Shown here: positions 14,564 through 30,625 of the stretch, piece after piece
How the letters are laid out: every line of letters begins with the position of its first letter
Position numbering within the stretch: position 1 is the stretch's first letter
NCBI GenBank assembly: GCA_963696385.1
Contig: CAVOKF010000005.1
Location: forward strand, 960,001 to 1,024,000
Direction: 5' to 3'
DNA from: an uncultured delta proteobacterium
GTDB taxonomy: Bacteria > Myxococcota_A > Polyangia > Polyangiales > Polyangiaceae
Length of the DNA: 64,000 nt
Program-made: the position numbers and the translations under genes
Notes under the pieces: model-generated
What the model saw: only the letters and a program-made list of their open reading frames with translations
The model's database searches: none
Told to the model about the DNA's origin: nothing

Positions 14564-16024
14564 CTAGCCTTTCGAAACGTGGTCCCCTTGGGGTCGCGCG
14601 ATGGCCATTTTTCCGCTGCTCGGCGGACGGTGATCGCGCTCGCGGACCGACTTTTCGAGCCCCCCGTAGGATTCGCGAACGCGGTCGAGCTTCCGATACA
14701 GCGTGCGGCGATCGAAACCGAGCACTTGCGCGGCGAGGGTCTTGTTGCCGCCGACGGCTTCGAGCACTTTGACGATGTAGCGCCGCTCGACCTCGTCCAT
14801 GGTCAGCAGTTCGGCGGGATCGTTCGACTCGACGGCGATGGTCGCCGTCTTGTAGTCGCGGATTTTCTCGGGCAGGTCGTCGACGCCGATTTGCTCGAAT
14901 TGCGCGAGTGCCACCGCGCGTTCGATGCAGTTTTGCAGTTCGCGGACGTTGCCTGGCCAGGGGTAGGAAATGAGCTTGTCGGCCGTCGCGCTCATCATTC
15001 CAAGAACGGGCCGGCGACTCTGCGCCGCGTACCGCTCGAGGAAGTGCTGGGCGAGCAAAAGGATGTCGCTGCCACGCGATCGCAGAGGCGGGACGTGAAC
15101 GCGTACGACGTTGATGCGATAGAAAAGGTCCTCGCGAAAGCGCTTCTCTTCGACCTCGGTCTCGAGGTCTCGATTGGTCGCAGCGATGATGCGTGCGTCG
15201 AACGGCTGCTCTTGCTCGCCGCCGACGGGCCGGACGGTGCGTTCTTGCAGGGCCCGCAGCAACTTGGCCTGCATTCCAGGAGGCATTTCGCCGATTTCGT
15301 CCAGAAACAGAGTGCCCTTACTGCCCTTGATGAAAAGGCCCGGACGCGCGTTGCGGGCATCCGTGAACGCGCCTTTGACGTGTCCAAAGAGTTCGCTCTC
15401 CAGAAGATTTTCGGGCATGGCCGCGCAGTTGATGGCGACAAAGGGCCCGTCCCTGCGCCCGCTTTTCGCGTGCAGAGCCTTCGCGACGAGCTCTTTGCCA
15501 GTCCCGCTCTCTCCGGTGATGAGCACGGTCGTCTCCGTGTCGGCCACCCGCGCGACGAGCTCGCACATTTTCGTGACCGCCGCGCTCGTGCCCAGAATGC
15601 CATTGAAGCGCCGTGTGCCATCGACCGCTTGCCGCAGCCGCTTCACTTCCTCACGAAGCGCGCGATGCCGAAGCGCCCGATCGATCGTCAAGGCGAGCTC
15701 GTCCATGTCGCACGGCTTGGTCACGAAGTCGTACGCACCCGCTCGGATTGCGGCGACGGCCGTCTCCATGTTCGCGCAGCCGGTGATGACGATGACGGGA
15801 ATGTCTTCGCGCCGCGCAACGAGCTGCTTGCAGAGCTCGACCCCACTCATCCCGACCAGATTCACATCCGTGATGATCAGGCCGAAGTCATCCCGCTCGA
15901 AGCTCGCAAGCGCTTCGACGGGCGTGGGGACCGACGTGACCTGGAACCCGCGCTGACGGAGCTCGCTTTCGAGCACCGTGCACATGCTTCGATCGTCGTC
16001 GATAAGGAGAATGGCTCGGGTCAT
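14564..16024 (-). CDS. Sigma-54-dependent response regulator (REC-AAA+-Fis HTH; NtrC/AtoC family)
   Basis: LLIDDD receiver, GESGTGKE, GAFTDA, LDEIGEM, WPGNVREL, LYRKL. Confidence 0.95.
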   Translation of the reverse strand: MTRAILLIDDDRSMCTVLESELRQRGFQVTSVPTPVEALASFERDDFGLIITDVNLVGMSGVELCKQLVARREDIPVIVITGCANMETAVAAIRAGAYDFVTKPCDMDELALTIDRALRHRALREEVKRLRQAVDGTRRFNGILGTSAAVTKMCELVARVADTETTVLITGESGTGKELVAKALHAKSGRRDGPFVAINCAAMPENLLESELFGHVKGAFTDARNARPGLFIKGSKGTLFLDEIGEMPPGMQAKLLRALQERTVRPVGGEQEQPFDARIIAATNRDLETEVEEKRFREDLFYRINVVRVHVPPLRSRGSDILLLAQHFLERYAAQSRRPVLGMMSATADKLISYPWPGNVRELQNCIERAVALAQFEQIGVDDLPEKIRDYKTATIAVESNDPAELLTMDEVERRYIVKVLEAVGGNKTLAAQVLGFDRRTLYRKLDRVRESYGGLEKSVRERDHRPPSSGKMAIARPQGDHVSKG

Positions 16025-16323
16025 TGCCTCGGCCCTTGGTCGCCACTCTATGGCGGGCGGGACGATTGCGCTACCGCTTCGCTCGCTCCGGGGCTCGGAC
16101 GATGGGCGTGGGCGCAGCGCCCTCGGGCCGCCCCGAGGCATCGTCGCGCTCCCGGTCGCGCGTCCAAGCGAACCGGACGCGGCCGTCGTCTCAGGCCAAG
16201 TCTTGACGCACCGGCCCTCGATGCGGATAAGTGGACACGTTGGCATCCGGCGACCGGCGCGTGCGTGGGCTCGCAGCGGGCGATGACCCGGAACACGATG
16301 GATATTTGGCCGGACCCTCGCGC

Positions 16324-17220
16324 ATGCCCAGCCCCTTCGTCCTCGCTCTCCGGGACGCGCGATCCCGGATCGCGTCGGCCGCGGATGCGTGCGCGACTGC
16401 CTCGGAACGCGTCGCGGCTCGTCGGCTTGCTCGCGAGATCGATCAGACCCTCGGGCGTCTCGAGGGAACCGACGCCGATCGGGACCTCATCTCCGTCGTC
16501 TGCCACGACCTAAAGGATCCGCTGGCTTCGATTGTCATGGGGGCGGGGTTTCTCAAGCGGACGGTCGCGCCCGATGAGGGACCCGTCCGTCGGGTCGTCG
16601 ATGCGATCGCCCGTTCGGCCGCCCGCATGAACCAAGTCGTCGGCGATTTCCACGACCTCGCGAAGATCGACTCTGGGATGATCGAGGCGGACCGGCGGCC
16701 CTGCGACGTGGGGTCCGCATTGCGGGCGGCTGCAGCGCCGTTCGAGGATCTGGCGAGTGCGCAAGAGGTGCGATTCGAACTCGACGTCCCCGTGGCGCCG
16801 CTCGTGGCGATCTGCGATCGCGGGCGGCTATTGCAGATCGTATCCAAGCTCGTGGGCAATGCCGTGCGCTTCACGCCCCCGGGGGGCCGGGTCGCCCTAT
16901 CGGCCTCATACGCGAGCGCAGAAGTCGGGCCATCGGCCGACGGCGAAGCGGCGAACGGCGGGACTCTCGAAGCGCGCGACCCGCAGCGAATCGTTCGGTT
17001 CTCCGTCGCCGACACCGGCCGTGGCATCGCGGCCGACCGACTGGCCACCATCTTCGATCATGCCGCGAACGCGCGGCGAACGCCCCGTGACGGCCCCGGG
17101 CTCGGGTTGGCCATCGTGCGGGGCCTCGTCGAGCTGCAGGGCGGCGCCGTCCGCGTCGAGAGTCGAATCGACCAGGGAAGTATCTTCTCGTTCACGCTCC
17201 CGGCGGCTGCCGTGTCTTGA
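16324..17220 (+). CDS. Histidine kinase (HisKA-HATPase) without an obvious sensor domain
   Basis: HDLKDPL H-box, GNAVRFT, DTGRG, GPGLGL; divergent from the NtrC-like gene; start uncertain. Confidence 0.88.
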   Translation: MPSPFVLALRDARSRIASAADACATASERVAARRLAREIDQTLGRLEGTDADRDLISVVCHDLKDPLASIVMGAGFLKRTVAPDEGPVRRVVDAIARSAARMNQVVGDFHDLAKIDSGMIEADRRPCDVGSALRAAAAPFEDLASAQEVRFELDVPVAPLVAICDRGRLLQIVSKLVGNAVRFTPPGGRVALSASYASAEVGPSADGEAANGGTLEARDPQRIVRFSVADTGRGIAADRLATIFDHAANARRTPRDGPGLGLAIVRGLVELQGGAVRVESRIDQGSIFSFTLPAAAVS

Positions 17221-17339
17221 GAGCCCGAGCCGGCCCCGGCGCGCGGTTCGAGTGCGTCCCGGTCGTGCCGCTCCCCGGGTGGGCGGAAGTCCGTCATCCG
17301 CCTGGAACTCCCGCGCAAAACGCTCTATGAGCGCGGGCC

Positions 17340-18731
<1,392 letters not shown>

Positions 18732-18910
18732 GGCGAAGCGCGCTCGCTCGAAGGAGCGCCGGGGTGGCGCATTTCGAGGAGGCCGAGAATTTGCAACAAC
18801 GTTGCATCCTCGATGCTCGACCGAGCAAGGCAGGGCCGGTGCTTTGAACTCTTGAAGTCGGGCGCCTACGCAGTTCCGGGGCATCCTTCGCGATGCGCCA
18901 CGGATTCCGC

Positions 18911-19010
18911 CTAGTACCCCGATTCCATGAAACGGAGGGGTGAGACCACCCGATCCCGTCGGGAATATCGCGGAAAACGACCCTTCCATTCCGCGGAATC
19001 GAGGTACTAG
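18911..19010. mobile_element. 100-bp MITE-like element with 31-bp imperfect terminal inverted repeats ending in CTAG
   Basis: ctagtaccccgattccatgaaacggaggggt (18911-18941) vs acccttccattccgcggaatcgaggtactag (18980-19010): 25/31 Watson-Crick pairs, all 6 differences are transitions. Confidence 0.55.
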
Positions 19011-19185
19011 CGCCGCAGGCCGAACCTTCGGAGTCCGAATCGGCGCGCGCGGCGTCGATGGTCATGCGGCTGAGGGGGGAGGGACCCCTTAAGCATTCGG
19101 CTGAATGGTCCGTAGCACCATGCGCAGGAGTTAACCGGCCAAAGCGCGGCATCAAGGCTTCTTTGGCCAGACCTTTCGCGACGGC

Positions 19186-20910
19186 ATGGAGCGTCGAAGT
19201 ATGAAGCCGGCCCCTCGCAACGATACGGTCCATCGTACTGTATTTGACACTGGCGCGAGTCGACTGCGAAGCCTCTGCGGGGCAATCGGGCTTGGCAATC
19301 GGTCGGAGTCGATCGTCGATGTCTTCGGGCGTTTGATTGATCCTTGGGGCCATAGAACCCTTGGAGACTGCCCCGTCTGGCCGTCGTACATCGGCGATGA
19401 TCACACTCCGATCGAGTTCTCGCTGACCTTTGGGGCCAAACCCGAAGTGCGCATCTTGTTGGAGCCACTCGGCGACTCTCCCTCGCTGGTCTCGAACCGG
19501 GACGCGGCCGTCGCTCTTCTCGAATCCATGGCGTCGGAGTTTGCCATTGACCTGATGCGTTTCGAACGGATCCAGAACTTGTTCTGCCCGGCCACGCCCT
19601 CCGGCCTTTTCAGCGTCTGGATTGCCGTGGCCTTTTCGGGCGACTCGCGTCCCGATTTCAAAATATACCTGAACCCGGCCGCCCAGGGACAAAAGCTCGC
19701 GCCGGCGCTTGTTGAGGAAGCCCTCGTGCGCCTCGGGTTCCCCGGCGCGTGGCCAACCGTCAGCCGCAGTCTCTTGCGACGCGGGCCCGAGTGGGACGAA
19801 CTTAACTATCTCGCGCTCGACCTGAGCGAGTCCCCCGACGCACGGGTCAAAGTCTACGCGCGCCATTTCGGCTGCTCGGTGACCGATCTCGAGGCGGTTG
19901 CAAGTGCGTCACGCTCGTACGATCCGGGCGACTTGAAAGCGTTCTTGGGGCTTGTCGCTCCCGACGCGGAGAACGATGTCTTCGAAGGTCGCTCACCATG
20001 CACCTGCTACTCGTTCGTGGGCGGCCAAGGAGATATTCCGGTGGCCGCGACCACGCACTTTCCCATCAATAGCTACGCTCCAAACGACGGTGCGGTGCGA
20101 CATCGCGTTTTGGCTTGCCTTGAGCGTTTCGGGATTGCGTCGGACTCGTACGCTCGCTCAATAGGGGCCTTCGCCAATCGGCCTCTCGACGAAGACATGG
20201 GTATGCACAGTTACGTATCGTTCCGCCGCTATCGTGGCGAGGCACGTCTGACGACGTATCTCGCGGTCGAGGCTTACAGGCCTGGTACGGTGGAAGCGGG
20301 CTCGAACGGGCGAGCCAGTGGCGTGGTCGAGGTCGCCAAGTGCTTCGGCCAGTTCGACGCCATCAGCGAGCATCCGTTTTGCCGCCGCATGGAGCGCGAG
20401 CCAATAGACGCGCGGACCCTTTGGATCCTTCTCGCCAACCTGGATGCGGTAGACCGTGGGTCTGGGGCTTGCGAGAAGCTCCGCATGCTCCCGCAACCGA
20501 GCGAGAGCGCCGCGACCTTCAAAGGACCGCCCGATTCGACCCTCGACGCGTGGCTCAGGCCGGGGCGCTCGCTCGACTCTCGACTCGCCGCGATTGCCGG
20601 TCCGTCGAACGCCGACGAATTCGCGACCGCCTCCATGGCGGTCGAGTTCATGCAAGGCCAGCTTGAGCGTTTCGCGAGCAGTGCACTCCGGCGCTGGCTG
20701 CGCTCGGCCGGACCAGCCGGATGCGCAAACGCGGGTCGTGTCGCAGTTGACCCGCAGGGGCTTGACACGAGAGAATTCTCGGCGGGACTCGGGGCGTTTG
20801 GGCCCGAGAGCGCAGTCGCGCGCGCCGCGTGGCAATTTCTCGATGATCTTTACTCGCTTTGCTACGGCTGCGAGTCGCCTTCGCGCGATCCCTTCGAAGC
20901 GCAGCCCTAG
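19186..20910 (+). CDS. Tryptophan dimethylallyltransferase-family (ABBA) aromatic prenyltransferase with C-terminal helical extension
   Basis: WPSYIGDDHTPIEFS, FSVWIAV, FKIYLNP, YLALDL..RVKVYARH, YVSF, TTYLAVEAY motifs of IptA/DMATS-like enzymes; ~190 aa C-terminal extension containing ISEHPFCRRM. Confidence 0.85.
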   Translation: MERRSMKPAPRNDTVHRTVFDTGASRLRSLCGAIGLGNRSESIVDVFGRLIDPWGHRTLGDCPVWPSYIGDDHTPIEFSLTFGAKPEVRILLEPLGDSPSLVSNRDAAVALLESMASEFAIDLMRFERIQNLFCPATPSGLFSVWIAVAFSGDSRPDFKIYLNPAAQGQKLAPALVEEALVRLGFPGAWPTVSRSLLRRGPEWDELNYLALDLSESPDARVKVYARHFGCSVTDLEAVASASRSYDPGDLKAFLGLVAPDAENDVFEGRSPCTCYSFVGGQGDIPVAATTHFPINSYAPNDGAVRHRVLACLERFGIASDSYARSIGAFANRPLDEDMGMHSYVSFRRYRGEARLTTYLAVEAYRPGTVEAGSNGRASGVVEVAKCFGQFDAISEHPFCRRMEREPIDARTLWILLANLDAVDRGSGACEKLRMLPQPSESAATFKGPPDSTLDAWLRPGRSLDSRLAAIAGPSNADEFATASMAVEFMQGQLERFASSALRRWLRSAGPAGCANAGRVAVDPQGLDTREFSAGLGAFGPESAVARAAWQFLDDLYSLCYGCESPSRDPFEAQP

Positions 20911-20955
20911 AATAGCCATTCGCTTGCGTCACTTCCTCGACACATTCACGAAACT

Positions 20956-21000
20956 AAGTACACCGCCCCAGAACAAAGGGATCAGCCGGGCGGTGTACTT
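20956..21000. repeat. Perfect 13-bp inverted repeat (aagtacaccgccc/gggcggtgtactt)
   Basis: Arms 20956-20968 and 20988-21000, 19-nt loop. Confidence 0.8.
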
Positions 21001-21070
21001 CGATCGCCGGGAGGCGATTGGGGGTTTGGGGCGAAGCTGCAAGGAAATCAACTTAACACTACTGCGAGGG

Positions 21071-21137
21071 GTACAGCGCCAGCTCGCAACGCGGACCTAC
21101 CCAGCGACGCTGGGTACCGTTTAACGGGGCGCTGTAC
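21071..21137. repeat. Nested inverted repeat: outer gtacagcgcc/ggcgctgtac, inner tacccagcg/cgctgggta
   Basis: Outer arms 21071-21080 and 21128-21137; inner arms 21098-21106 and 21108-21116. Confidence 0.75.
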
Positions 21138-21418
21138 TGAAGGACGTTACGCCGAAGGGCGGGCCAACGCGCGCTCACGATGGCCCAGGCTCACTGCCCG
21201 CGGGCGGCGCCCGGTCCGCCGCATCAACGCAATCGTCGATGCTGGTCTCTTTCATCACGGTCTACGCGCCCGTGTAGGCCGGTGGGCGCAATCCCCATTG
21301 CAGAAGAGCACGCGAGACGATGAGCGGGTAAGCGAGTCGTAGGCATCGCGCCGGGGGCAACAAAATAACGCCATTGCGAACTTGTGCGAGCTGTTGGATC
21401 ATGTGTCGAGGTTTCCAC

Positions 21419-22876
21419 ATGCTCGATAGGCGCCATTTTCTTGCAGGATTGGCATCGACTACGGTTCTTGGTTTTAGCCCTACCGCTCGCCTGTGGGTGA
21501 GCGTCGCGCACGCAGAGTCCACGTTCGAGTCGGTCCCCCCACTCGATGGCGTCCTCCTCACTGACCCCGCGTCTCGAGCCGCCGACGCGGTCGACGTCGG
21601 CAACATCGTTCACCTGACCCCGATCGCCGTGTTGAGACCCGGCTCTGTCGAAGACATCAAGAAGATGGTGCGATTCTGCCGTCGGTTTCACATTCGAATT
21701 GCGGCGCGCGGACAGGGACACACGACGTTCGGTCAGGCCCAGGTCGAAGGCGGTCTGGTCATCGAGATGAGTGCCCTCGATACCATTCACTCCATCGGCC
21801 CCGACACAGCGGACGTGGACGCCGGTGTGCTCTGGAGGGATCTTGTGGAGGCCAGTGTCCCACTTGGCCTGACTCCTCCGGCGCTGACAGGCTTCACAGG
21901 CCTCTCGATTGGCGGCACGCTTTCCGTCGGCGGGATTTCGCCGTCGTACGCGCAGGGCGCGCTAATCAATAACGTGCGGGAGATCGAAGTCGTAACCGGC
22001 GCGGGCGACGTGATGCGCTGCTCTCCCCAACTCAACACCGACCTGTTCGCGGTGGTACGCGCGGGGCTTGGTCAGTGCGCCGTGATCACACGCGCGGTAG
22101 TCGACCTCGTGCCGGCCAAGACGTTCGTGCGCGTCTTCCAGCCGAGTTACACCGACAACGCGACGTTTTTCGCCGATCTGCGAACTCTCGTCGCGAGAGA
22201 AGAGCTTCGCGACATCCTCACGATGTGGGTTCTCAACGGTAGCGGAGGCTGGATCTATGGCCTCAGCGCGGTCGCCTACTTCGACCCGGCGACACCGCCC
22301 GACGCGGCTTTTTTGCTTCGCGGTCTGAGCGTCGCCCCGGCCAACGTGCCTTTCGTGGACGTTCCGTATTTGCCGTACGTGCTTAGTGTCGATACACAGA
22401 TCGAGGAGTTTATGCGGGAGGGGTTGTGGGACGGCGTTGTGCACCCTTGGTTCGACGTCTTTCTTCCAGAGTCGGCCGTCGAGCGCTATGTCGGCGACGT
22501 CATTCCAACTCTTGCCCCCGACGATGTGGGAGCGACGGGCTTTCTCTTGCTTTTCCCGCACAAGAAGCGGAGGTCCACGAGTTCGTTCCTGCGTCTGCCG
22601 GAAGGCGACGTGGTTTATTTGTTCGATATTCTGACCGCGGCCGCTGCGCCCGGCCCGGACCCGGCCTTTGCGACTCGGATGCTCCGTCGGAACCGCGCCT
22701 TGTTCGAGAAGGCCCGCGTCGTCGGCGGGACTCGCTACCCCATCGGTTCGATCCCCTTCGACGAAACGGACTGGGTGGAACAGTACGGCGCGCAATGGAG
22801 TGAATTGATGTTGCTCAAACAGCGATTCGACCCGGATGACCTTTTGGCGCCGGGGCCCGGAATTTTTGGGAAATAG
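21419..22876 (+). CDS. Tat-exported FAD-linked oxidoreductase, cytokinin dehydrogenase (CKX)-like
   Basis: MLDRRHFLAG twin-Arg; ARGQGHT (covalent-FAD His), LSIGGTLSVGG, AGLGQCAVITRA, HPWFDVFLP (CKX HPWLNLF-like), KQRFDPDDLLAPG. Confidence 0.85.
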   Translation: MLDRRHFLAGLASTTVLGFSPTARLWVSVAHAESTFESVPPLDGVLLTDPASRAADAVDVGNIVHLTPIAVLRPGSVEDIKKMVRFCRRFHIRIAARGQGHTTFGQAQVEGGLVIEMSALDTIHSIGPDTADVDAGVLWRDLVEASVPLGLTPPALTGFTGLSIGGTLSVGGISPSYAQGALINNVREIEVVTGAGDVMRCSPQLNTDLFAVVRAGLGQCAVITRAVVDLVPAKTFVRVFQPSYTDNATFFADLRTLVAREELRDILTMWVLNGSGGWIYGLSAVAYFDPATPPDAAFLLRGLSVAPANVPFVDVPYLPYVLSVDTQIEEFMREGLWDGVVHPWFDVFLPESAVERYVGDVIPTLAPDDVGATGFLLLFPHKKRRSTSSFLRLPEGDVVYLFDILTAAAAPGPDPAFATRMLRRNRALFEKARVVGGTRYPIGSIPFDETDWVEQYGAQWSELMLLKQRFDPDDLLAPGPGIFGK

Positions 22877-22921
22877 TTTCGGAGTGCACACCGACCGGGT
22901 GACGCCTATCGGTTAAATCCA

Positions 22922-24316
22922 ATGGTAGACCTGGCAAAGGACATGTTCCTCCGTTCCCTCGCCGAACCGTTCAAGACGAAGGTGGTGGAGAGGGTTCGCC
23001 TGCCGGATCGCGCCGATCGCACGCGGGTGCTTGCGGAGGCCTTCTATTCGCCCGCTTACATGAATTCCGCCGACGTTTGTATCGACTTGGTCACGGATAG
23101 TGGAACGGGAGCTATGAGCGATGAGCAATGGTCGGCGCTCATGCGCGGTGATGAAGCCTACGTGCGCTCGAAGAGTTTCTTGGCGTTCGAGAGGACGGTC
23201 CAAGAAGTTTGTGGATTTGCGCATGTGATTCCGACGCACCAAGGACGTGCGGCCGAGAACATCGTCATGGAGCTGCTTCTGAAGCCGGGCGATATCGTGC
23301 TGAGCAACACCCACTTCGATACGACCAAAGCGCACGTCGAGCATCGGGGCGCGACACCCATCGATCTCGTATGCGAGCGCCTATGGCGGTTTCAAGAGCC
23401 GCATCCGTTCAAGGGCAATGTGGATCTTGAGCGGTTGGAAGTGGCACTGAAGCGTTACCACGACCGCGTCCGGCTCATCGTGGTCACCGTCCTCAATAAC
23501 ATGGCGTGTTCGTCTCCAGTCTCAATGGAAAATATTCGCGAGACGCGGTCACTGGCGAAGCAATATAATATACCACTATTTTTGGACGCCTGCCGATTCG
23601 CGGAAAATGCTCATTTCATAAAAGCTCGCGAGACCGGTTACGAGAGCAAGAGCATTCCCGATATCGTATCGGAGATGATGTCCTATGCCGACGGCTGTTG
23701 GATGAGCGCGAAGAAAGATGCACTCGTCAATATCGGTGGATTCATCGCCACCAACGATCAGGATTTTGCGCGACGTTGCCAGGAAAAATTGGTGCTCTAC
23801 GAAGGGTTTTATACGTATGGGGGTCTTGCCCGACGCGATCTAGAGGCAATAGCGGTCGGGCTTCGGGAGGGCACGGACGAGGACTACTTGGCGCATAGAA
23901 CCTCGTTGGTTGCGTACTTGGGTGAGCGAATGGAGGAGGCAGGTCTCGTTGTAAGTAAGCCGATCGGAGGCTCTGGCGTCTTTGTGGATGTCCAAGCTCT
24001 GTATCCCCATCTGGGTCCAGAAAAATTGCCTGGAATTGCGCTATTCTCTGACTTCTATATCGAAGGTGGCATTCGGGTCGGGGCGGCACCATTCTCGATG
24101 TTCACACTGTCGTCGCAGGGCGAAATTACCGAGCGAATCTTTCAGTTTGCGCGGTTTGCGATCCCGCGGAGGGTGTACGGCAAGGCGCACATGGATTATG
24201 TCGCGGAAGTGGCCCGCGTTGTAAAAGCGAAGGCATTGTTGAATGCTGGGTATCGACTTGTCGAAAAGCCGTCGGTACTTGGTCATTTTTTTGCCAAGTT
24301 TGCTCCACTTGGCTGA
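22922..24316 (+). CDS. tnaA: Tryptophanase-like PLP beta-eliminating lyase (divergent)
   Basis: EPFK, DLVTDSGTGAMS, GDEAY, HQGRAAE, HFDTT, DACRFAEN, MSAKKD (PLP Lys), RFAIPRRVY, GHFFA. Asp in HFDTT and His near the C-terminus indicate tryptophanase rather than tyrosine phenol-lyase. Confidence 0.85.
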   Translation: MVDLAKDMFLRSLAEPFKTKVVERVRLPDRADRTRVLAEAFYSPAYMNSADVCIDLVTDSGTGAMSDEQWSALMRGDEAYVRSKSFLAFERTVQEVCGFAHVIPTHQGRAAENIVMELLLKPGDIVLSNTHFDTTKAHVEHRGATPIDLVCERLWRFQEPHPFKGNVDLERLEVALKRYHDRVRLIVVTVLNNMACSSPVSMENIRETRSLAKQYNIPLFLDACRFAENAHFIKARETGYESKSIPDIVSEMMSYADGCWMSAKKDALVNIGGFIATNDQDFARRCQEKLVLYEGFYTYGGLARRDLEAIAVGLREGTDEDYLAHRTSLVAYLGERMEEAGLVVSKPIGGSGVFVDVQALYPHLGPEKLPGIALFSDFYIEGGIRVGAAPFSMFTLSSQGEITERIFQFARFAIPRRVYGKAHMDYVAEVARVVKAKALLNAGYRLVEKPSVLGHFFAKFAPLG

Positions 24317-24331
24317 TCGCGAAGCAAATCA

Positions 24332-24754
24332 ATGACTGTTCGTAATAAAACTCTGACTTTCGAATTTGTGTCGGATGTTTTGCTGGTCCTTCGCGAAAAT
24401 GCCGTGACGCCTCGCGACGAAGATTGGGACGCCTTTCTGAAGGTGCTTGTCGAGAATCGTGAAAACTTCGAAAAACTTAGGATTCTTGTTCGGACGGAAG
24501 GCGGTGGACCCAACGTGCTGCAACGCAAGCGACTTCAGAAGGCCCTTGGCGGTAGACCGATACGAGTCGCGGTGGTGACGAACAGCATTCCGGTCCGCTT
24601 CCTCGTTTCATCGATCGCCTTGCTGAACCGGGCCATTCGATCTTTTGCCATTGATGAGATCAAAGGCGCATATGAACATCTGAGCTTGACACCCGCCGAG
24701 ATCCGGCTTGCAGACGAAGCGATCGTGAAAATGAACGAAGTCGTCGAATTCTAA
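24332..24754 (+). CDS. STAS/SEC14-like small protein (myxobacterial type)
   Basis: PRDEDWDAFL..ILVRTEGGGPNVLQRK..VAVVTNS..RAIRSF..AYEHL pattern; 15 bp after the tnaA-like stop. Confidence 0.6.
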   Translation: MTVRNKTLTFEFVSDVLLVLRENAVTPRDEDWDAFLKVLVENRENFEKLRILVRTEGGGPNVLQRKRLQKALGGRPIRVAVVTNSIPVRFLVSSIALLNRAIRSFAIDEIKGAYEHLSLTPAEIRLADEAIVKMNEVVEF

Positions 24755-24900
24755 CTGGTTGGCGGGGCGGGCCCGGCAAGAGTGTCGCGCTTTCGAAGTT
24801 CGGACTCGCTCGAAGCGCGGTCAGCGGTCTCCCCCGGGCGCGGCAGAATCAGGCGTCGCGACGCCGCACGAAGCGGTCGCCCGGAGAGAACGCACGGCGC

Positions 24901-25281
24901 TCACTTCGAGTCGGAGGAGTCGGGGCCCGGCTCGGGCGGCGAAACCAGCGTGTCGGCCCGGGACGCTGCGGCGTCGACCGGTTCGGCCCGGAGCAGAAGA
25001 GCGCCGATGCGAAATTCGTGACCCACCGTGGCCAGATCGATCGGCTGGTGGCGCTCGAGCCGCCGTGTGCCCTCGCGGACCCAGGTGCCCTGACGGCTGC
25101 CCTCGTCGGTCAACAGGAGCTGGCCTTCGCGCAGGTCGATGCGTGCGTGGCGACGCGAAACAAATCGGAACTCCAGCCTGCAATCGTTCGACAGATCCCG
25201 ACCGATGCGGATCGGAGTCGTGTTGAACACGATGACGTTTTTGTGTCCGGAATACTCGACACACAAGCGGATGAGGGTCAC
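24901..25281 (-). CDS. Stand-alone FHA domain protein
   Basis: IRIGRDLSND, VSRRHA, DEGSRQGT. Confidence 0.8.
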   Translation of the reverse strand: MTLIRLCVEYSGHKNVIVFNTTPIRIGRDLSNDCRLEFRFVSRRHARIDLREGQLLLTDEGSRQGTWVREGTRRLERHQPIDLATVGHEFRIGALLLRAEPVDAAASRADTLVSPPEPGPDSSDSK

Positions 25282-25440
25282 CGGCGCCTCAGTACGGCAG
25301 CGTGCACGCTAGTGGGATAGCTCAGGAGGTCACGGGTTGGCGACCGAAAGCGACCGAAATTCGGTGTCTTCGCGGCCCGTGCGGCCGAGCCCGGCGGCCA
25401 GCAACGACGCAAACTGCCCGAGGTCATCGACCTCGAAAGG

Positions 25441-26121
25441 TCACGCCTGCCCAACCCGTCGCCCGAGCCACGCTCCCACGGCTCCCGCGACGATCATCAT
25501 CGCTCCGTGACCGACGAGCACGTGGTAGGCGCTGTCGTCGGGGCACACGAGGTTCATCATCACGGCAGCGAGCGCGCCGCATGCGACGCCGAGGGCCGAG
25601 ACTTTCAGAGCGGACCCCGTGGCGAAAGCGTGCCGGAATGCCCATGCCGCGAGGGCGAGCGGGCCGCCGGCAAAAATGGCGCTCCGCACCAGGCAGTTTG
25701 CGGTGCCGAGCCAGAAGCTCTCGCTCCACTCGACCGGAAAGGCGGCCGCTGTCGCCGACACGAACAGGCCGACAGCGCCGACGGTCAGGGCGACGATGCG
25801 GCCGGGCGTCTCGCCGAGGCCGCGCGATCCTTGTCGGGTGGCGGCGGCCAGGGCGATCGCCGCGGCAGCGAGCGGGATCAGGACGCCGAGCACAACGATA
25901 CCGCTAGGGCGTCCGCCGCCGTGGATTCGGAAGACGGCAAGCCAGCACGCGTCGTATGCGAGCGCGGCCGCGAGAGCACCCGCACGCATTGCCCGCACGC
26001 GCGATCGGGTCGGCGAGACAGGGCGTGCCGGCACGCCGAACGAGGGCAACGGCGGCCGCGCGCCGTCCGCAAAGGGATCGGGAATATCCCGGAGAAGCTG
26101 AAGGTCGAGGTCGGGTTTCAC
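25441..26121 (-). CDS. NrsF/DUF1109-like membrane anti-sigma factor
   Basis: Multi-TM; conserved Cys (ANCL) and C-terminal CPDDSAYHVLVGH; directly downstream of the ECF sigma. Confidence 0.75.
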   Translation of the reverse strand: MKPDLDLQLLRDIPDPFADGARPPLPSFGVPARPVSPTRSRVRAMRAGALAAALAYDACWLAVFRIHGGGRPSGIVVLGVLIPLAAAAIALAAATRQGSRGLGETPGRIVALTVGAVGLFVSATAAAFPVEWSESFWLGTANCLVRSAIFAGGPLALAAWAFRHAFATGSALKVSALGVACGALAAVMMNLVCPDDSAYHVLVGHGAMMIVAGAVGAWLGRRVGQA

Positions 26122-26125
26122 GACG

Positions 26126-26776
26126 TCAACGCCCCGCCCCGGCGGCACGATCGAGTGCAGCGCGCAGCGCCTCGTAGGCACGGAACGCTCGGATCTTGAC
26201 GGCGCCGACGCTAGCACCAACCACCTGTGCGGCCTCGCTCACGCTCAAGCCCTCGAAGCGCAGCAAGAGGAACGCTTCGCGCTGCAGGGTGGGCAGCTCG
26301 CTCAGCGTGCGCCGGACCACGTCGAGCATTTCCTGTGCGGCGAGCGCTTCGTCTCCGCGCGTGTCCACGGCGGCCTCGGGCTGCTGCGCGTGATCGTCCT
26401 CGGCCGTCGATCCCGCCGTCGTCGCGGGTCGCGCCCGCACTCGTCGGACATGATCACGAAAAACGTTGCGCCCGATCGCGAGAATCCACGGAACGGCCGG
26501 CGCGCCGGCGCCGAAGCTTCCGCGGGCGCGGTGCACCCGAAGAAACGCCTCCTGAATCAGGTCCTCGGCGAGCGCGCGATCTCCGCAGAGGCGGATGAGG
26601 AAGCCGCGCAAACGCGGCGCGCCTCGCCGGTAGAGCTCGTCGAACGCAGCGTCATCACCGCGGGCGTAGCGATCCATCGCCTCGTCGAGCGCTCGGTCCG
26701 ACGGATCCGCGCCCCGGCTTCGCTCGCCGGGGATGAGCGGCAAGGGCCGCGAGAGGTTGTCGGTCGGCTCGACCAT
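26126..26776 (-). CDS. ECF RNA polymerase sigma factor
   Basis: GDDAAFDELY, AEDLIQEAFL, WILAIGRN, LPTLQREAF, AVKIRAFRAY. Confidence 0.93.
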   Translation of the reverse strand: MVEPTDNLSRPLPLIPGERSRGADPSDRALDEAMDRYARGDDAAFDELYRRGAPRLRGFLIRLCGDRALAEDLIQEAFLRVHRARGSFGAGAPAVPWILAIGRNVFRDHVRRVRARPATTAGSTAEDDHAQQPEAAVDTRGDEALAAQEMLDVVRRTLSELPTLQREAFLLLRFEGLSVSEAAQVVGASVGAVKIRAFRAYEALRAALDRAAGAGR

Positions 26777-26920
26777 GGACCGTGCCCGGAAAGGATTGGC
26801 ACTCTCCCCGATAGGCACCCACATCGTCAACAGTCCCCGCACGCAACCTGGGACGGTGATCGCAGTCGCGACAGAAGGCACGCCCAGCACGCTCGGGTTT
26901 ACGCACGCGCAGGCGCAACG

Positions 26921-27862
26921 TTATCCGAACGACACGCCGGAGAAGAGCCCGCTCGAGACCCACTCGCGAAACCAGGCCATCACGCGCGCCACGGCGACCT
27001 CCTCGCTGAGGTCGCCGAAGCCCGCCGCTGCCCGCTCCAAGGAGGTGCCGAGGGTGGCACCGCCCCAAAGACCGTTCAAGAGGTCGAACATCGGGTCCGA
27101 CAGATCCATGCGCCAGACCGTGGGTCCGGAGCGGTACACGGCGGCAGCGGAAGCGCAACGATCCGGGATCGCTTGGCTTTTGCCCTCGCGAAACGCCTGA
27201 AAGTATGTGTTTACGGGGTATACGAATCGCAGGAGCCGAAATGCGGGCGTCGTCGTCATTCGGGCGTCTACCCACCGCTCGACGGGCACGTCGCGCAGCC
27301 CCGACAGCGTCAGGGGTTCGGTGCTTGCAGCGTGGATCACTTCGACGATCGCCCATTCGAGCGTGGCGAGGTCCGCGAGGAACGCGCGAGGCGCGATCGA
27401 TTCGAACGACTCCTGCACCCGACACCATTCCGACATCCGGCGGCCATAGGCGTTCAGATTCGGGGAGGTGGACGGGTACAGCGCGATGTACGCGCGGGCC
27501 ATTCGGTCGAACGCCGGCTCGCCCACCGCCGCCTGCAGCGCGGGATAGTCGTCCGCGAGACATTCGATCAGCCGCAGGTGGTAGGCGTGCCGGTAGACTT
27601 CGAGACGTTCGAGGCAAGACAGCCGCGGTCCAGGCGTCAGCACCCGGTCGGCGTCGGAGGCCGACGGAGCCGCCGCCGTCTCGGGCGACATCACCGCGCG
27701 CGCAAACCACTCCTGCCGAGCACGCAGCGAGCCGTCGTCGGGCGGCGCGTCCGGGGCAATCGCCGGTGCGCTCGTGGTGCCGGGCAGGCGCCATCGAACG
27801 ACAGGGGTCGCACTGGCGCGCTCGCGTTCGACGACGGTTTCGACGATCGCGCGGCGAGTCAC
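26921..27862 (-). CDS. DUF2063 (BufC/HvfC-like) MNIO partner protein
   Basis: ERLEVYRHAY..LADDYPAL..G..F..YP STSPNLNAYG..DLATLEWA; GTGA overlap with the DUF692 stop. Confidence 0.88.
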   Translation of the reverse strand: MTRRAIVETVVERERASATPVVRWRLPGTTSAPAIAPDAPPDDGSLRARQEWFARAVMSPETAAAPSASDADRVLTPGPRLSCLERLEVYRHAYHLRLIECLADDYPALQAAVGEPAFDRMARAYIALYPSTSPNLNAYGRRMSEWCRVQESFESIAPRAFLADLATLEWAIVEVIHAASTEPLTLSGLRDVPVERWVDARMTTTPAFRLLRFVYPVNTYFQAFREGKSQAIPDRCASAAAVYRSGPTVWRMDLSDPMFDLLNGLWGGATLGTSLERAAAGFGDLSEEVAVARVMAWFREWVSSGLFSGVSFG

Positions 27863-28689
27863 GATCCGCCTCCCATGAAATGCCGGGCACGGAGCGCTTC
27901 GGCGTGGGTCTCGTCGAACGACGGAATCTCCGCGTCCCACTCGAGCAGAACGGAAGTGCCGCCCCCGAGCCGATAGGCATCGCCGAAGAGACGCCACACG
28001 TCGTCCACGACGGGACCGATATGCGAATCGATGACGTGGGTTCCGTGATTCGTATGTCCGGCCACGTGCATTTGCACGACGCGATCGAAGGGGACCGCCG
28101 CCAAGTAGACGCGCGGGTCGAACCCGTGATTGAAGGCGGAGACGTAGATATTATTGACGTCGAGCAGAATGGCGCAATCGGATTCTTCCGCCAGTCGGCC
28201 CAAAAATTCCCACTCGCGCATGGATGCGCCCGCGAACTCGACGTACGTCGACGGGTTCTCGAGCGCCAAGGGAGCGCCGAGGAAGTCTTGCACGTAACGG
28301 ACTCGCGCCGAGACGTGCGCCAGCGCCTCTTCGGTGTACGGCATCGGCAGCAGGTCGTGCGTGTTTTTGCCCGAGACACCCGTCCAGCACAGATGATCGG
28401 AGACCCAGCGAGCGCCTGTGCGGTCGCGAAGGACGCGGAGATCGGCCAGGTAGCCGCGGTCGATGGGATCGGTCGATCCGATCGACAGCGACACGCCGTG
28501 CATCACAATCGGGTATCGCCCGGCGATCGCATCCAGGTAATCGAGCGGCCGTCCGGACGTCTGCAGGTAGTTGTCGCTGATGATTTCGAACCAGTCGACG
28601 TCGGGCTGATGCTCGAGAATGTGACGATAATGCGCGGTACGCAACCCGAGGCCAATTCCGAGATTCGCAAGGCCGAAACGGTTGGCCAT
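27859..28689 (-). CDS. DUF692 multinuclear non-heme iron oxidative enzyme (MNIO; BufB-like)
   Basis: GLGLRTAHY, HGVSLSIG, SDHLCW, HDLLP, LENPSTY, LDVNNIYV, HVAGH, IDSH, LEWD. Confidence 0.95.
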   Translation of the reverse strand: MANRFGLANLGIGLGLRTAHYRHILEHQPDVDWFEIISDNYLQTSGRPLDYLDAIAGRYPIVMHGVSLSIGSTDPIDRGYLADLRVLRDRTGARWVSDHLCWTGVSGKNTHDLLPMPYTEEALAHVSARVRYVQDFLGAPLALENPSTYVEFAGASMREWEFLGRLAEESDCAILLDVNNIYVSAFNHGFDPRVYLAAVPFDRVVQMHVAGHTNHGTHVIDSHIGPVVDDVWRLFGDAYRLGGGTSVLLEWDAEIPSFDETHAEALRARHFMGGGS

Positions 28690-28736
28690 GATCACCCCAT
28701 GCTCCTCGCGGCGGCCGACGTCCAATGAGGCGCGGT

Positions 28737-28761
28737 GCGCCGGCGCGTGCATCGCCGGCGC
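28737..28761 (-). terminator. GC-rich stem-loop between precursor and MNIO genes (attenuator or mRNA stabiliser candidate)
   Basis: gcgccggcg / cgccggcgc 9-bp stem, 7-nt loop, ~15 nt after the precursor stop; no U-tract. Confidence 0.45.
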
Positions 28762-28775
28762 CCTCGAGCGTCGAC

Positions 28776-29048
28776 TCAAGCCGTCTTGCAGCCTCCTTGA
28801 CCCTTGCAGTCGTTCTGGGCCTTGCAGCCGTGCTTGTCGGTCTTGCAGCCGCCCTGACCCTTGCAATCGTTCTGGCCCTTGCAGGCGTGTTTCGCCGGAG
28901 CCGCCGCCGTTTGGGGCGCGGCGCTGCCCGACGCGGCAGGCGCCGCCGCGGCCGGCTGCTGCGCCGGGGGCGTTTCACCGGCACAGCCGGCGGCGCCAAA
29001 GAGAATTCCACCCACAGCCGCTGCAATCAACGAATGCGATATTTTCAT
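28776..29048 (-). CDS. Cys-rich RiPP precursor (bufferin BufA2-like), lipoprotein
   Basis: MKISHSLIAAAVGGILFGAAGC lipobox, Ala/Pro linker, then two 19-aa repeats KHxCKxQNDCKGQGGCKT; GAGGA RBS; upstream of DUF692/DUF2063. Confidence 0.85.
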   Translation of the reverse strand: MKISHSLIAAAVGGILFGAAGCAGETPPAQQPAAAAPAASGSAAPQTAAAPAKHACKGQNDCKGQGGCKTDKHGCKAQNDCKGQGGCKTA

Positions 29049-29109
29049 GATATTCCTCGTGAGTTGACGGTGTTTGATCGTGCCCCGCCTCGCTGGGCCG
29101 CGATTCGAA

Positions 29110-29134
29110 TACGTGCCCGGTGCTTTTTCGTTTC
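29110..29134 (-). promoter_or_regulatory. Candidate ECF promoter GAAAC-N16-CGTA for the precursor operon
   Basis: Minus strand gaaac gaaaaagcaccgggca cgta; same geometry as the site upstream of doxX. Confidence 0.55.
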
Positions 29135-29194
29135 GCTCGTTCTTCTCCCAGGCGGGCGGCGGCGAGGGTTGCCCCATCCGGCCGCGCCCGTCAA

Positions 29195-30625
29195 TCACAT
29201 CGAGGTGGGGGGCGTCGTGATCGCTCTGCGAATCGAAGCTCGCGGAGCGTGGTCGTCGAAGGTGATCGCCGTGCTCGCGACCCGGACGCCAAGATCGGAC
29301 CATAGCGCGGCCAGATCGACCGAGCCGGGCGCAAGAGCCAGAGCCCGGTACAGTTCGGAGACCACGGTCGTGCCCGTCGCGCGGTCGGCGGCTTCGAGAA
29401 AGCGCGCGATGTCGACGGTCGCCGCGGCGTCATCCCGGGCGCCGATCAAGCCGCGGAGCACGTCATCGAAGGACCGGTCCCCGCGCGTCGCTTCGCGGAT
29501 CCGAACGTCGGCGACGAAGCAGAAGAGGGCTCCGCCCCAATACGTACGGCCCCAGGTTCGGGTTCGATCGAGACCCCGGTCGCCCGCCTCGGGCAGCCCC
29601 TGGGGGAGGCCTTGCGCGAGCTCCCGCCAGTATCGTTCGGCGGTCACCAGCCCGGCGCGCGCCCGCACGATCGGCTCGACGTATGTCGCAATCCCCTCGT
29701 CCAACCAGGCGTGCGCGTGCCCGAGCGACGGCAAGGTGGCGTGGATCAGTTCGTGCGTAACGACCCAGTCGTCTCGCGCGGCCTCGGCCGTCAGTCCGTC
29801 GGCCGGTCGAATTACGACCGCCGGGCCGCCCTCGGTGATCGTTTCGCCGCGGGTGCTTTGGCCCAACCCCGGCACGATGATCACGAGCACTCTCGGCACC
29901 GGCAAGGCGCCGTAATAGGCGGCCAGGCTCGAGGCTCCGCGGGCGACCCAAGCCGTCAATTCGGGGGGGGTGAGCGGCAGGCCACGGGGTGCAAGTGCCA
30001 CGTCGATCCGCGCGGCGCCAACGGGGATCGTGTCGAGTCGAAAGGAGCCGAACACGGCGAAGCTCGCATTGGCCATGTCGGCCGTGGCAGCCTCGAACGT
30101 ATCGGCGGAACCACCAACCGCACGGATGCCGGTCGCGAAGTGCGTCGTGCCCTTCGTGGTCACTCGAAATCGAAAACGATTGCGGCCAACCGGTTCGGTG
30201 GGGCGGAGCAGCCACGTGGAGGGTGGCGCGACGATCGAATCGCCGGCAGCCAGCGCCGACTCCGCGTCGTTCAGACGGTGCGCCGCCTCGTCGAGCGCAA
30301 ACCCGTAACGGATCCGGCATCCCCCGCGGCATGGCGCGACCCACGTAGTGCCGTCGCTCGGCAGCGGCTTCCAGCCGCCGTCCACGGCGTATTGGGGGTC
30401 GCGTACGAATGGGGCGCCGTCCGGGTCGACTTCGAGAGCCTGCGCTTCGGTGGGCGCAAAGTCGGCGGCAATGCGTAGAACGTTTGCCGCGGGGCCGACC
30501 GCTTCGACGGCGTACGTCCAGACGAGAGGCGGGCCGGAAGGGGGCGCATGAAGCGCGCGAGCGCCGCCGGGGGTCTCGGGCATCGAACCCGCACAACCGG
30601 CCAAGGCCAACGCCGAGGCGAGCAT
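29195..30625 (-). CDS. Gluzincin (M61/M1-like) metallopeptidase, putative lipoprotein
   Basis: THELIH..WLDEGIATY zinc motif; TYWGGALF; LALAGC lipobox; start uncertain. Confidence 0.75.
   Translation of the reverse strand: MLASALALAGCAGSMPETPGGARALHAPPSGPPLVWTYAVEAVGPAANVLRIAADFAPTEAQALEVDPDGAPFVRDPQYAVDGGWKPLPSDGTTWVAPCRGGCRIRYGFALDEAAHRLNDAESALAAGDSIVAPPSTWLLRPTEPVGRNRFRFRVTTKGTTHFATGIRAVGGSADTFEAATADMANASFAVFGSFRLDTIPVGAARIDVALAPRGLPLTPPELTAWVARGASSLAAYYGALPVPRVLVIIVPGLGQSTRGETITEGGPAVVIRPADGLTAEAARDDWVVTHELIHATLPSLGHAHAWLDEGIATYVEPIVRARAGLVTAERYWRELAQGLPQGLPEAGDRGLDRTRTWGRTYWGGALFCFVADVRIREATRGDRSFDDVLRGLIGARDDAAATVDIARFLEAADRATGTTVVSELYRALALAPGSVDLAALWSDLGVRVASTAITFDDHAPRASIRRAITTPPTSM

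Follow-up and report, generated by a model that had tools for sequence, protein, structure and literature searches.

A 64,000-nucleotide stretch of contig CAVOKF010000005.1 (assembly GCA_963696385.1; hereafter the window) from an uncultured member of the Polyangiaceae, whose genome is 6.9 Mb and 96% complete, contains four open reading frames (ORFs) on the plus strand after fumC (17340–18731). These encode, in order, a DMATS-type prenyltransferase fused to the remnant of a second domain, a flavoprotein derived from cytokinin dehydrogenases (CKX), a tryptophanase, and a small protein resembling SpoIIAA and STAS/SEC14 proteins (Table 1). The original prediction, made from the letters of the DNA alone, had described four co-oriented genes with gaps of approximately 500, 45 and 15 bp; the gaps measure 508, 45 and 15 bp, and the families it assigned are confirmed by family scans and, for the small protein, by the predicted fold. 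All four genes are single-copy in the genome as assessed by tblastn, with the exception of one weak 29% match to the flavoprotein, and those homologs that carry names come mostly from Polyangiaceae and other Myxococcota. The four-gene grouping is conserved in other genomes, beyond chance.

Table 1. Coordinates of the four genes and their domains (positions in the window)
Feature	Position	Strand	Remarks
DMATS-HDO fusion ORF	19186–20910	+	574 aa; database gene call begins 5 codons downstream
DMATS/IptA-type indole prenyltransferase domain	19186–20295	+	aa ~1–370; Trp_DMAT, 6-DMATS fold, conserved residues
Predicted relic heme-oxygenase-like diiron (HDO) domain, fused to prenyltransferase	20296–20910	+	iron-ligand motifs gone
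CKX-derived VAO-family flavoprotein	21419–22876	+	485 aa; twin-arginine signal DRRHFL, aa ~1–32
Tryptophanase, cluster-dedicated clade, remodelled ring pocket	22922–24316	+	464 aa
Small cytoplasmic SpoIIAA/STAS-SEC14-like protein, cluster-associated subclade	24332–24754	+	140 aa

The four genes and their predicted products

The first ORF matches the Pfam family Trp_DMAT (E = 2e-17), and its closest match in the PDB is 6-DMATS (E = 1e-57), on which the model of residues 1–370 superimposes as an ABBA barrel (TM-score 0.92–0.93; Foldseek E = 1e-26). Residues E77, R89, Y161, R220, K222 and Y224 are present in 131/131 aligned homologs, and K159 and Y358 in 129/131; we take the conserved Glu to bind the indole and the conserved Arg/Lys/Tyr set to bind the diphosphate. 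The best-scoring solved relatives (1e-57 to 1e-39) prenylate C6 or C5. The earlier reading of this gene as a prenyltransferase therefore stands for residues 1–370 but not for the protein as a plain enzyme, as residues ~371–574, where many homologs carry PF14518, form a diiron domain that, judged by its sequence, is a dead relic that has lost its iron ligands. Specifically, the DELG, AH, IEIFG and HEELExxH motifs are all missing from the window protein, whereas clear diiron motifs are found in many homologs; both scored motifs occur in 40 of 43 intact fusions and neither in 13 of 15 relics. The C-terminal domain of the window protein matches a profile built from intact diiron domains (E = 2.7e-10), diverges faster than the N-terminal domain (67 vs 82%, 40 vs 67% and 31 vs 64% identity), and groups with CADD-like HDO proteins rather than with the AetD group, by a weak match (E = 0.014). 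In a midpoint-rooted FastTree tree of DMATS domains (131, reduced to 118 non-redundant ones by merging at 95%; all of our trees were made with FastTree and carry SH-like support only), the window protein falls within a 14-row group consisting mostly of relic fusions (support 98). The sister of this group is a pair of intact fusions that occur with a class V pyridoxal phosphate (PLP) enzyme and the same flavoprotein clade (support 100), and because the intact pair is sister, the relic domain likely descends from an intact DMATS-diiron fusion.

The flavoprotein matches FAD_binding_4 (3e-25) and Cytokin-bind (4e-25) but BBE at just E = 0.079, and among solved structures it is closest to plant CKXs (E = 2e-57). 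Its Gly158 is aligned with Asp169 of ZmCKX1 (chain position 151 plus an offset of 18). Papers are cited here and below for the excerpts available of them; according to these, the catalytic Asp is essential in CKX (PMC8234997; PMC9340367), and swapping it increases relative oxygen reactivity (PMC8234997). Since this essential residue is Gly, the flavoprotein is predicted not to be a CKX by the catalytic-Asp criterion. The label "CKX-like" given in the original prediction thus holds for derivation, on the evidence of Cytokin-bind and the plant relatives, and fails for CKX chemistry. The replacement is general in a clade of 56 flavoproteins (support 100), of which 55 have Gly at this position and all 56 retain the His that links flavin adenine dinucleotide (FAD; His101 in the window), whereas Asp is kept in 38 of 43 rows outside the clade. 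The FAD-linking motif is GHT in the window protein and GHS in CKX. When duplicates are kept, 49 clade members have a DMATS gene in the DNA examined around them, 3 have the lyase and small-protein genes there, and 4 have none of these. Export, also predicted originally, is supported by a twin-arginine signal, although the model for twin-arginine translocation (TAT) signals scores 13.5 bits, under its cut-off of 16.7. The twin-arginine pattern is found in 46 of 54 Gly-type homologs (RRxAL is visible by eye in 6 more, and the other 2 are truncated), but also in 28 of 44 other rows, so export is not peculiar to this clade. Separately, many genomes of Polyangiales carry CKX-like genes that stand alone and still encode the Asp (22 loci, L237–L258; L250 with a frameshift-like split), most of them with the twin-arginine pattern; their products could be true bacterial cytokinin dehydrogenases.

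The third gene encodes a lyase that matches Beta_elim_lyase (E = 7e-70) and scores 565.6 bits with the NCBIfam tryptophanase subfamily model (cut-off 285), below both equivalog cut-offs (463.6 vs 750 and 407.3 vs 825.8). Its A45, V57, V81, S351, G387 and A389 replace the F, L, A, H, V/M and I/R, respectively, of ordinary lyases. The position of A45 is that of TPL F36, which we assume to be a pocket residue. G387 and A389 correspond to V394 and I396 of the Escherichia coli enzyme, which are ring-pocket residues, and the lyase retains the PLP-binding K265 and the catalytic Y80 together with the tryptophanase specificity set D133, F296 and H455 (E. coli D137, F304 and H463, mapped via TPL numbering) (PMC5805759). 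The window lyase belongs to a clade that is split off by a branch with support 100 and is sharply bounded (61–100% identity, next matches at most 51%). All of its 46 rows have G, A or S at 387; at position 45, 45 of them have V, A, T or I, as compared with F in 49 of 51 others. Of 40 tryptophanase-type rows outside the clade, just one, a DMATS-linked lyase from a cyanobacterium, combines A45 with G387. As a separate observation, a tryptophanase on a plasmid of Amycolatopsis sp. AA4 (L277:4300-8374) lies two genes from a tryptophan 2-C-methyltransferase and has Ser at the V394 position, and may be another lyase paired with a modified tryptophan (Trp).

The small protein falls short of the SpoIIAA-like Pfam model (E = 0.062; 14.5 bits against a cut-off of 25). 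Its predicted structure (pLDDT 91.9) has 2q3l as best match (Z 9.9, root-mean-square deviation 3.8, 113 residues aligned), followed by STAS proteins (Z 8.0–8.2); Foldseek with this model gave zero matches at E < 0.001, and its Atlas neighbours are Myxococcota clusters without a name. A profile of the protein gives 21 matches at E < 1e-38, 11 of which belonged to the training alignment, and then a long weaker tail (101 genomes at E 1e-8 or better). Among the top 21, 19 lie beside cluster genes and 2 (both in G419) elsewhere.

Conservation of the grouping and its side-chain modules

To survey the grouping we used 401 genomes taken evenly across the order. Trp_DMAT was found in 65 of these, Cytokin-bind in 73 and both in 46 (these tallies, and the 101 genomes above, include the unpublished genomes G413 and G010, neither of which is among the linked or lyase-clade genomes counted next). 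In 36 of the 65 DMATS genomes the DMATS and CKX-like genes lie at most 6 kb apart (Fisher's p = 3e-26, a value that is overstated, as kin genomes are not independent). A lyase of the window clade occurs in 12 genomes, all of which have DMATS, within 6 kb in 10; in the remaining two the lyase lies near a contig end, beside the flavoprotein or small-protein gene. By contrast, comparison by eye found a DMATS neighbour at 0 of 137 ordinary lyase matches among the matches listed for the 401 genomes. The complete four-gene set stands together in 8 genomes, and a ninth carries a related small protein. A set of metagenome loci (80 kept of 99 confirmed, 49 of them in the lyase clade) gave the same picture: of the 23 clade loci whose flanks reach 5 kb or more, 22 have DMATS or the flavoprotein and 19 have DMATS, whereas DMATS is found at 0 of 31 ordinary-lyase loci, 7 of which have weak 28–32% flavoprotein matches. 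The co-occurrence anticipated in the original prediction is thus borne out, and relatives of the cluster are also found in cyanobacteria (L208, L219, L223) and in genomes of Myxococcaceae type (L211 and L225, the latter the named strain Hyalangium versicolor, with a cluster of the clade-lyase kind). Genes of the mevalonate pathway (HMG-CoA reductase and others) adjoin several clusters (L025:12286-16428; L143, L146, L148, L186, L079), possibly for supply of dimethylallyl diphosphate (DMAPP).

Searches seeded with these genes yielded 118 non-redundant loci, a collection that is not a random sample. Among them the clade lyase is present at 30, an AetD-like diiron enzyme (E = 3.6e-44 to solved AetD) at 22 and a class V kynureninase-like PLP enzyme at 44. 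The lyase never occurs with the AetD-like enzyme (0/118) or with the class V enzyme (0/118); the latter two coincide at L213 alone, a locus with two clusters. The class V gene is found at 42 of the 43 intact DMATS-diiron fusions. By gene content, then, there are three predicted side-chain modules that exclude one another: the lyase, the AetD-like enzyme, and the intact diiron domain with the kynureninase-like enzyme. Neighbouring rows of the DMATS tree repeatedly switch between lyase and AetD-like enzyme, while the flavoprotein is retained whichever module is present. AetD uses ring-substituted Trp (PMC10673588), and since the lyase swaps with an AetD-like enzyme, the exchange points by analogy to prenyl-Trp as a shared intermediate. 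Loci that lack an intact diiron domain repeatedly carry the small protein or a second small family, whereas only 1 of the 43 with such a domain does; FIST genes are present at 20 of those 43 and at 0 of the 75 without.

Three variant arrangements were seen among these loci. At L155:3318-5933 (G247) a single ORF fuses DMATS to a clade tryptophanase, and the flavoprotein there is the sole clade member with Asp. Intact fusions with a class V enzyme make up a sister cluster (L030, L032, L157–L203 and others, including L180 and L181 from Nostoc), often with methyltransferases and FIST or kinase genes. Lastly, in Myxococcaceae/Hyalangium a divergent AetD-like domain is N-terminal to DMATS (L135:9388-11205, L211, L225:7311-9134, L229, L233, L236), and some of these fusion genes adjoin a clade lyase.

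At the window the cassette is flanked by genes for FumC, an FHA protein, NrsF and an extracytoplasmic function (ECF) sigma factor. In G006 the four genes are inverted as one block, likewise between fumC and NrsF-sigma genes, and the same place in G016 holds an AetD-like gene and an aldehyde dehydrogenase gene, with the lyase absent. We considered fumC as a cassette member and rejected it; its family is present at just 4 of the clustered loci. Only the last ~170 bp of the 508-bp gap are conserved in a 95%-identical relative, and the corresponding gap in G006 is ~115 bp; therefore no hidden gene is indicated. Three promoter-like sites (shuffle mean 1.3) and three terminator-like sites (shuffle mean 6.9) were found, counts that carry no information, and an Rfam scan of 16000–28000 gave zero matches. 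The G+C content at third codon positions drops along the four genes (0.72, 0.74, 0.63 and 0.57), and because it lies below the contig median of 0.79 (472 called genes), it suggests an acquired or fast-evolving block. Two further features were noted. On the minus strand at 25444–29303 the window encodes NrsF, an ECF sigma factor, DUF2063, a DUF692-type (MbnB/TglH/ChrH) enzyme and a short Cys-rich repeat precursor, which we take to resemble a bufferin-type locus for a ribosomally synthesised and post-translationally modified peptide. Elsewhere in the genome (C5:931663-931758, not in the window), ARAGORN gives a tRNA call of 96 bases with the stop-reading anticodon TTA, probably spurious or degenerate.

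A proposed route to an oxidised prenylindole

We propose, with confidence that is evenly balanced, that the cassette makes a C-prenylated indole from Trp and that oxidation of the prenyl chain follows outside the cytoplasm, with an indiacen-type diene as the most likely product. In the first step the DMATS domain would, very probably, use DMAPP to prenylate L-Trp at a ring carbon. The dedicated tryptophanase would then split prenyl-Trp into prenylindole, pyruvate and ammonia, a step we consider likely and in which its smaller ring-pocket residues would accommodate the prenyl group. The route from Trp through prenyl-Trp to prenylindole, as originally predicted, is thus a likely one given the DMATS/lyase linkage, the pocket changes and the swap with an AetD-like enzyme. 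CKX abstracts a hydride from C1' of the prenyl chain, in a cavity above the flavin. In the third step, which taken as a whole we lean slightly towards accepting, neutral prenylindole would reach the periplasm by diffusion and the TAT-exported flavoprotein would abstract hydride at the same carbon; the indole nitrogen would drive hydride loss, N6-H being absent and the Asp now Gly, and proton loss would yield a 3-methylbuta-1,3-dienyl indole, as with EasE and CnsA acting on prenyl-Trp. More tentatively, the small STAS/SEC14-like protein might bind or carry the hydrophobic indole. The product would most likely be a diffusible antimicrobial or cue.

Several observations weigh against this proposal. 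A CKX-like match is missing in 19 of the 65 DMATS genomes and unlinked in 10 more (many of these genomes are fragmented), the lyase cluster of G409 has a P450 and lacks a CKX-like gene in the 15 kb examined, and four Gly-clade flavoproteins stand without any cluster gene in the DNA examined. Phe159 of the window flavoprotein replaces the Tyr that adjoins the catalytic Asp, which is required for covalent flavinylation in CKX (PMC8234997); among the 55 Gly-type rows this position is Tyr in 31 and Phe in 23. A cyanobacterial CKX homolog without the Asp is inactive. A DMATS-linked tryptophanase of Streptomyces has F and V as ordinary lyases do, so that pairing with DMATS can do without the pocket changes. 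His343 (TPL numbering), found in 51/51 other rows, is Ser in 46/46 clade rows, a change that could mean altered chemistry. As for the product, the 3-formyl group of the indiacens, and the chlorine of indiacen B, have no evident gene in the cassette, and no record named Sandaracinus, the source of these compounds, appeared among 78 cluster loci and the best 120 of 534 homolog proteins.

The strongest alternative, which we nonetheless consider unlikely, shares the first two steps but has the flavoprotein hydrate the intermediate to an allylic alcohol, ketone or aldehyde, as tailoring or as periplasmic inactivation. It is established for the VAO family that this hydride abstraction can finish with the addition of water; export is consistent with protection or turnover, and genes of the aldehyde dehydrogenase family lie beside 3 of 19 loci (L022, L025, L035). 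However, the known aryl-prenyl oxidases of this superfamily (EasE, CnsA, MaMO and PenH, of the VAO/BBE family) mostly yield dienes (PMC11375781). That the flavoprotein is kept with every module is consistent with a step on the shared prenyl chain and singles out neither product.

The original prediction had proposed a cytokinin-like logic of making, breaking and sensing built on indole. Taken as CKX-type removal of the prenyl group by the flavoprotein, with the small protein as sensor, it would need an N1-prenyl indole, and we regard it as improbable. In its favour are the plant CKXs as nearest solved relatives of the flavoprotein, an Asp loss that could suit a nitrogen lacking H, the FIST genes at 20 of 43 sister-type loci, and the conservon proposed for signalling in actinomycete clusters (PMC3617294). 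The best solved prenyltransferase relatives, however, prenylate ring carbons, and a C-prenyl indole would not be cleavable by the flavoprotein because imine hydrolysis of the CKX type cannot break a ring-carbon bond. D133 and H455 of the lyase need a free indole N-H. Both are retained, and both are located at the indole ring (PMC5805759). Prenyl removal is also at odds with the Gly in place of the CKX Asp, and FIST genes are found instead at the sister type and at none of the loci without an intact diiron domain. Neither the breaking nor the sensing part is thus borne out: for the small protein, the fold makes a carrier plausible, whereas no kinase or regulator recurs at this cluster type among the 118 loci.

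We think it comparably improbable that the lyase uses plain Trp, with indole prenylated later or merely supplied by the lyase. The lyase is the sole tryptophanase of the genome and keeps the signature D133, F296 and H455, as this would lead one to expect. Arguing otherwise are the pocket changes throughout the clade, its strict linkage to DMATS, the separate ordinary tryptophanase that accompanies the clade enzyme in G233 and G270, and the precedent of IptA-type enzymes, by which Trp is prenylated first (PMC3617294). That the flavoprotein is a genuine adenine-cytokinin dehydrogenase with incidental indole neighbours is hardly credible: Cytokin-bind scores above its cut-off and many homologs are labelled cytokinin dehydrogenase in databases, but the essential Asp is missing, the genome's sole match to the IPT family is a gene of the tRNA type, and the linkage to DMATS far exceeds chance.

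Beyond the window, and with rather less confidence than in the proposed C-prenylation and oxidation itself, we suggest that the Asp-to-Gly branch of CKX may be an exported aryl-prenyl desaturase, the shared last enzyme of modular myxobacterial and cyanobacterial prenyl-indole pathways with three routes of side-chain removal, and the missing diene former of indiacen-type compounds, whose product might have its own STAS/SEC14 binding protein and serve as a diffusible signal of uncultured Polyangiales.

Relation to known systems

The cassette is real, conserved and probably undescribed: a literature search found no description of DMATS with CKX-like genes, of DMATS-HDO fusions or of AetD homologs with prenyltransferases, although subscription papers lay mostly outside its coverage and a description may exist. 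If our proposal is correct, a class of orphan prenyl indoles from myxobacteria would gain its genes, and a large set of bacterial proteins now annotated as "cytokinin dehydrogenase", though predicted to be incapable of CKX chemistry, would gain a function. The flavoprotein would be a soluble bacterial candidate for the prenyl-to-diene reaction, fungal EasE having been reported difficult to purify (PMC9811125). The loci would also capture pathway evolution under way, with the fused diiron domain decaying and a tryptophanase or AetD-like enzyme taking over side-chain removal, and the sister cluster (intact fusion with kynureninase-like enzyme at 42 of 43 loci) would be a second uncharacterised pathway.

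The product type predicted for the cassette is that of the indiacens of Sandaracinus, myxobacterial 4-(dienyl) prenyl indoles with a 3-formyl group, of which B is chlorinated (PMC4660955, PMC9042329, PMC9306752); indiacen B, a 3-formylindole bearing the dienyl chain, was made from 4-iodoindole. A gene assignment for indiacens was not found among the matches listed in our literature search, and one genome named Sandaracinaceae (L203) has the sister cluster type, with the CKX-like gene absent in the DNA examined. Like the aetokthonotoxin pathway, sister clusters bear a close AetD homolog (PDB 8JI2, 8TWN), in place of the tryptophanase; the window, by contrast, has no AetD-like gene, and its predicted relic domain belongs to the other, CADD-like, HDO group.

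The flavoprotein shares with CKX (ZmCKX1 and Rhodococcus FasE) the two-domain layout, the FAD-linking His and the DVG and HPW motifs (PMC8234997), but differs in the Gly for Asp169, the Phe for the adjacent Tyr and GHT for GHS, and lies in an indole cluster from which an adenylate IPT is absent. It also resembles EasE, CnsA and plant MaMO in being a flavoprotein of the VAO/PCMH superfamily that would act after a DMATS on an aryl-prenyl chain, with the reaction proposed alike (PMC11375781, PMC9811125); unlike these it is bacterial, of the CKX branch (Cytokin-bind) and TAT-exported by prediction, and would act on free indole.

The pairing of DMATS with tryptophanase is already known from actinomycetes, where Type A clusters combine IptA with a tryptophanase to give 6-dimethylallylindole-3-carbaldehyde and 6-prenylindole (PMC3617294). 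The window has the same adjoining of a DMATS-type Trp prenyltransferase and a tryptophanase, and the choice between tryptophanase (Type A) and FMO (Type B) in actinomycetes parallels the module swap at these loci (PMC3617294). The window differs from Type A in that the four-gene conservon is not adjacent (PMC3617294), in a lyase clade that stands apart from the one Streptomyces DMATS-linked lyase compared (41% identity), and in adding the predicted exported CKX-derived flavoprotein, the STAS/SEC14-like protein and the putative relic diiron domain.

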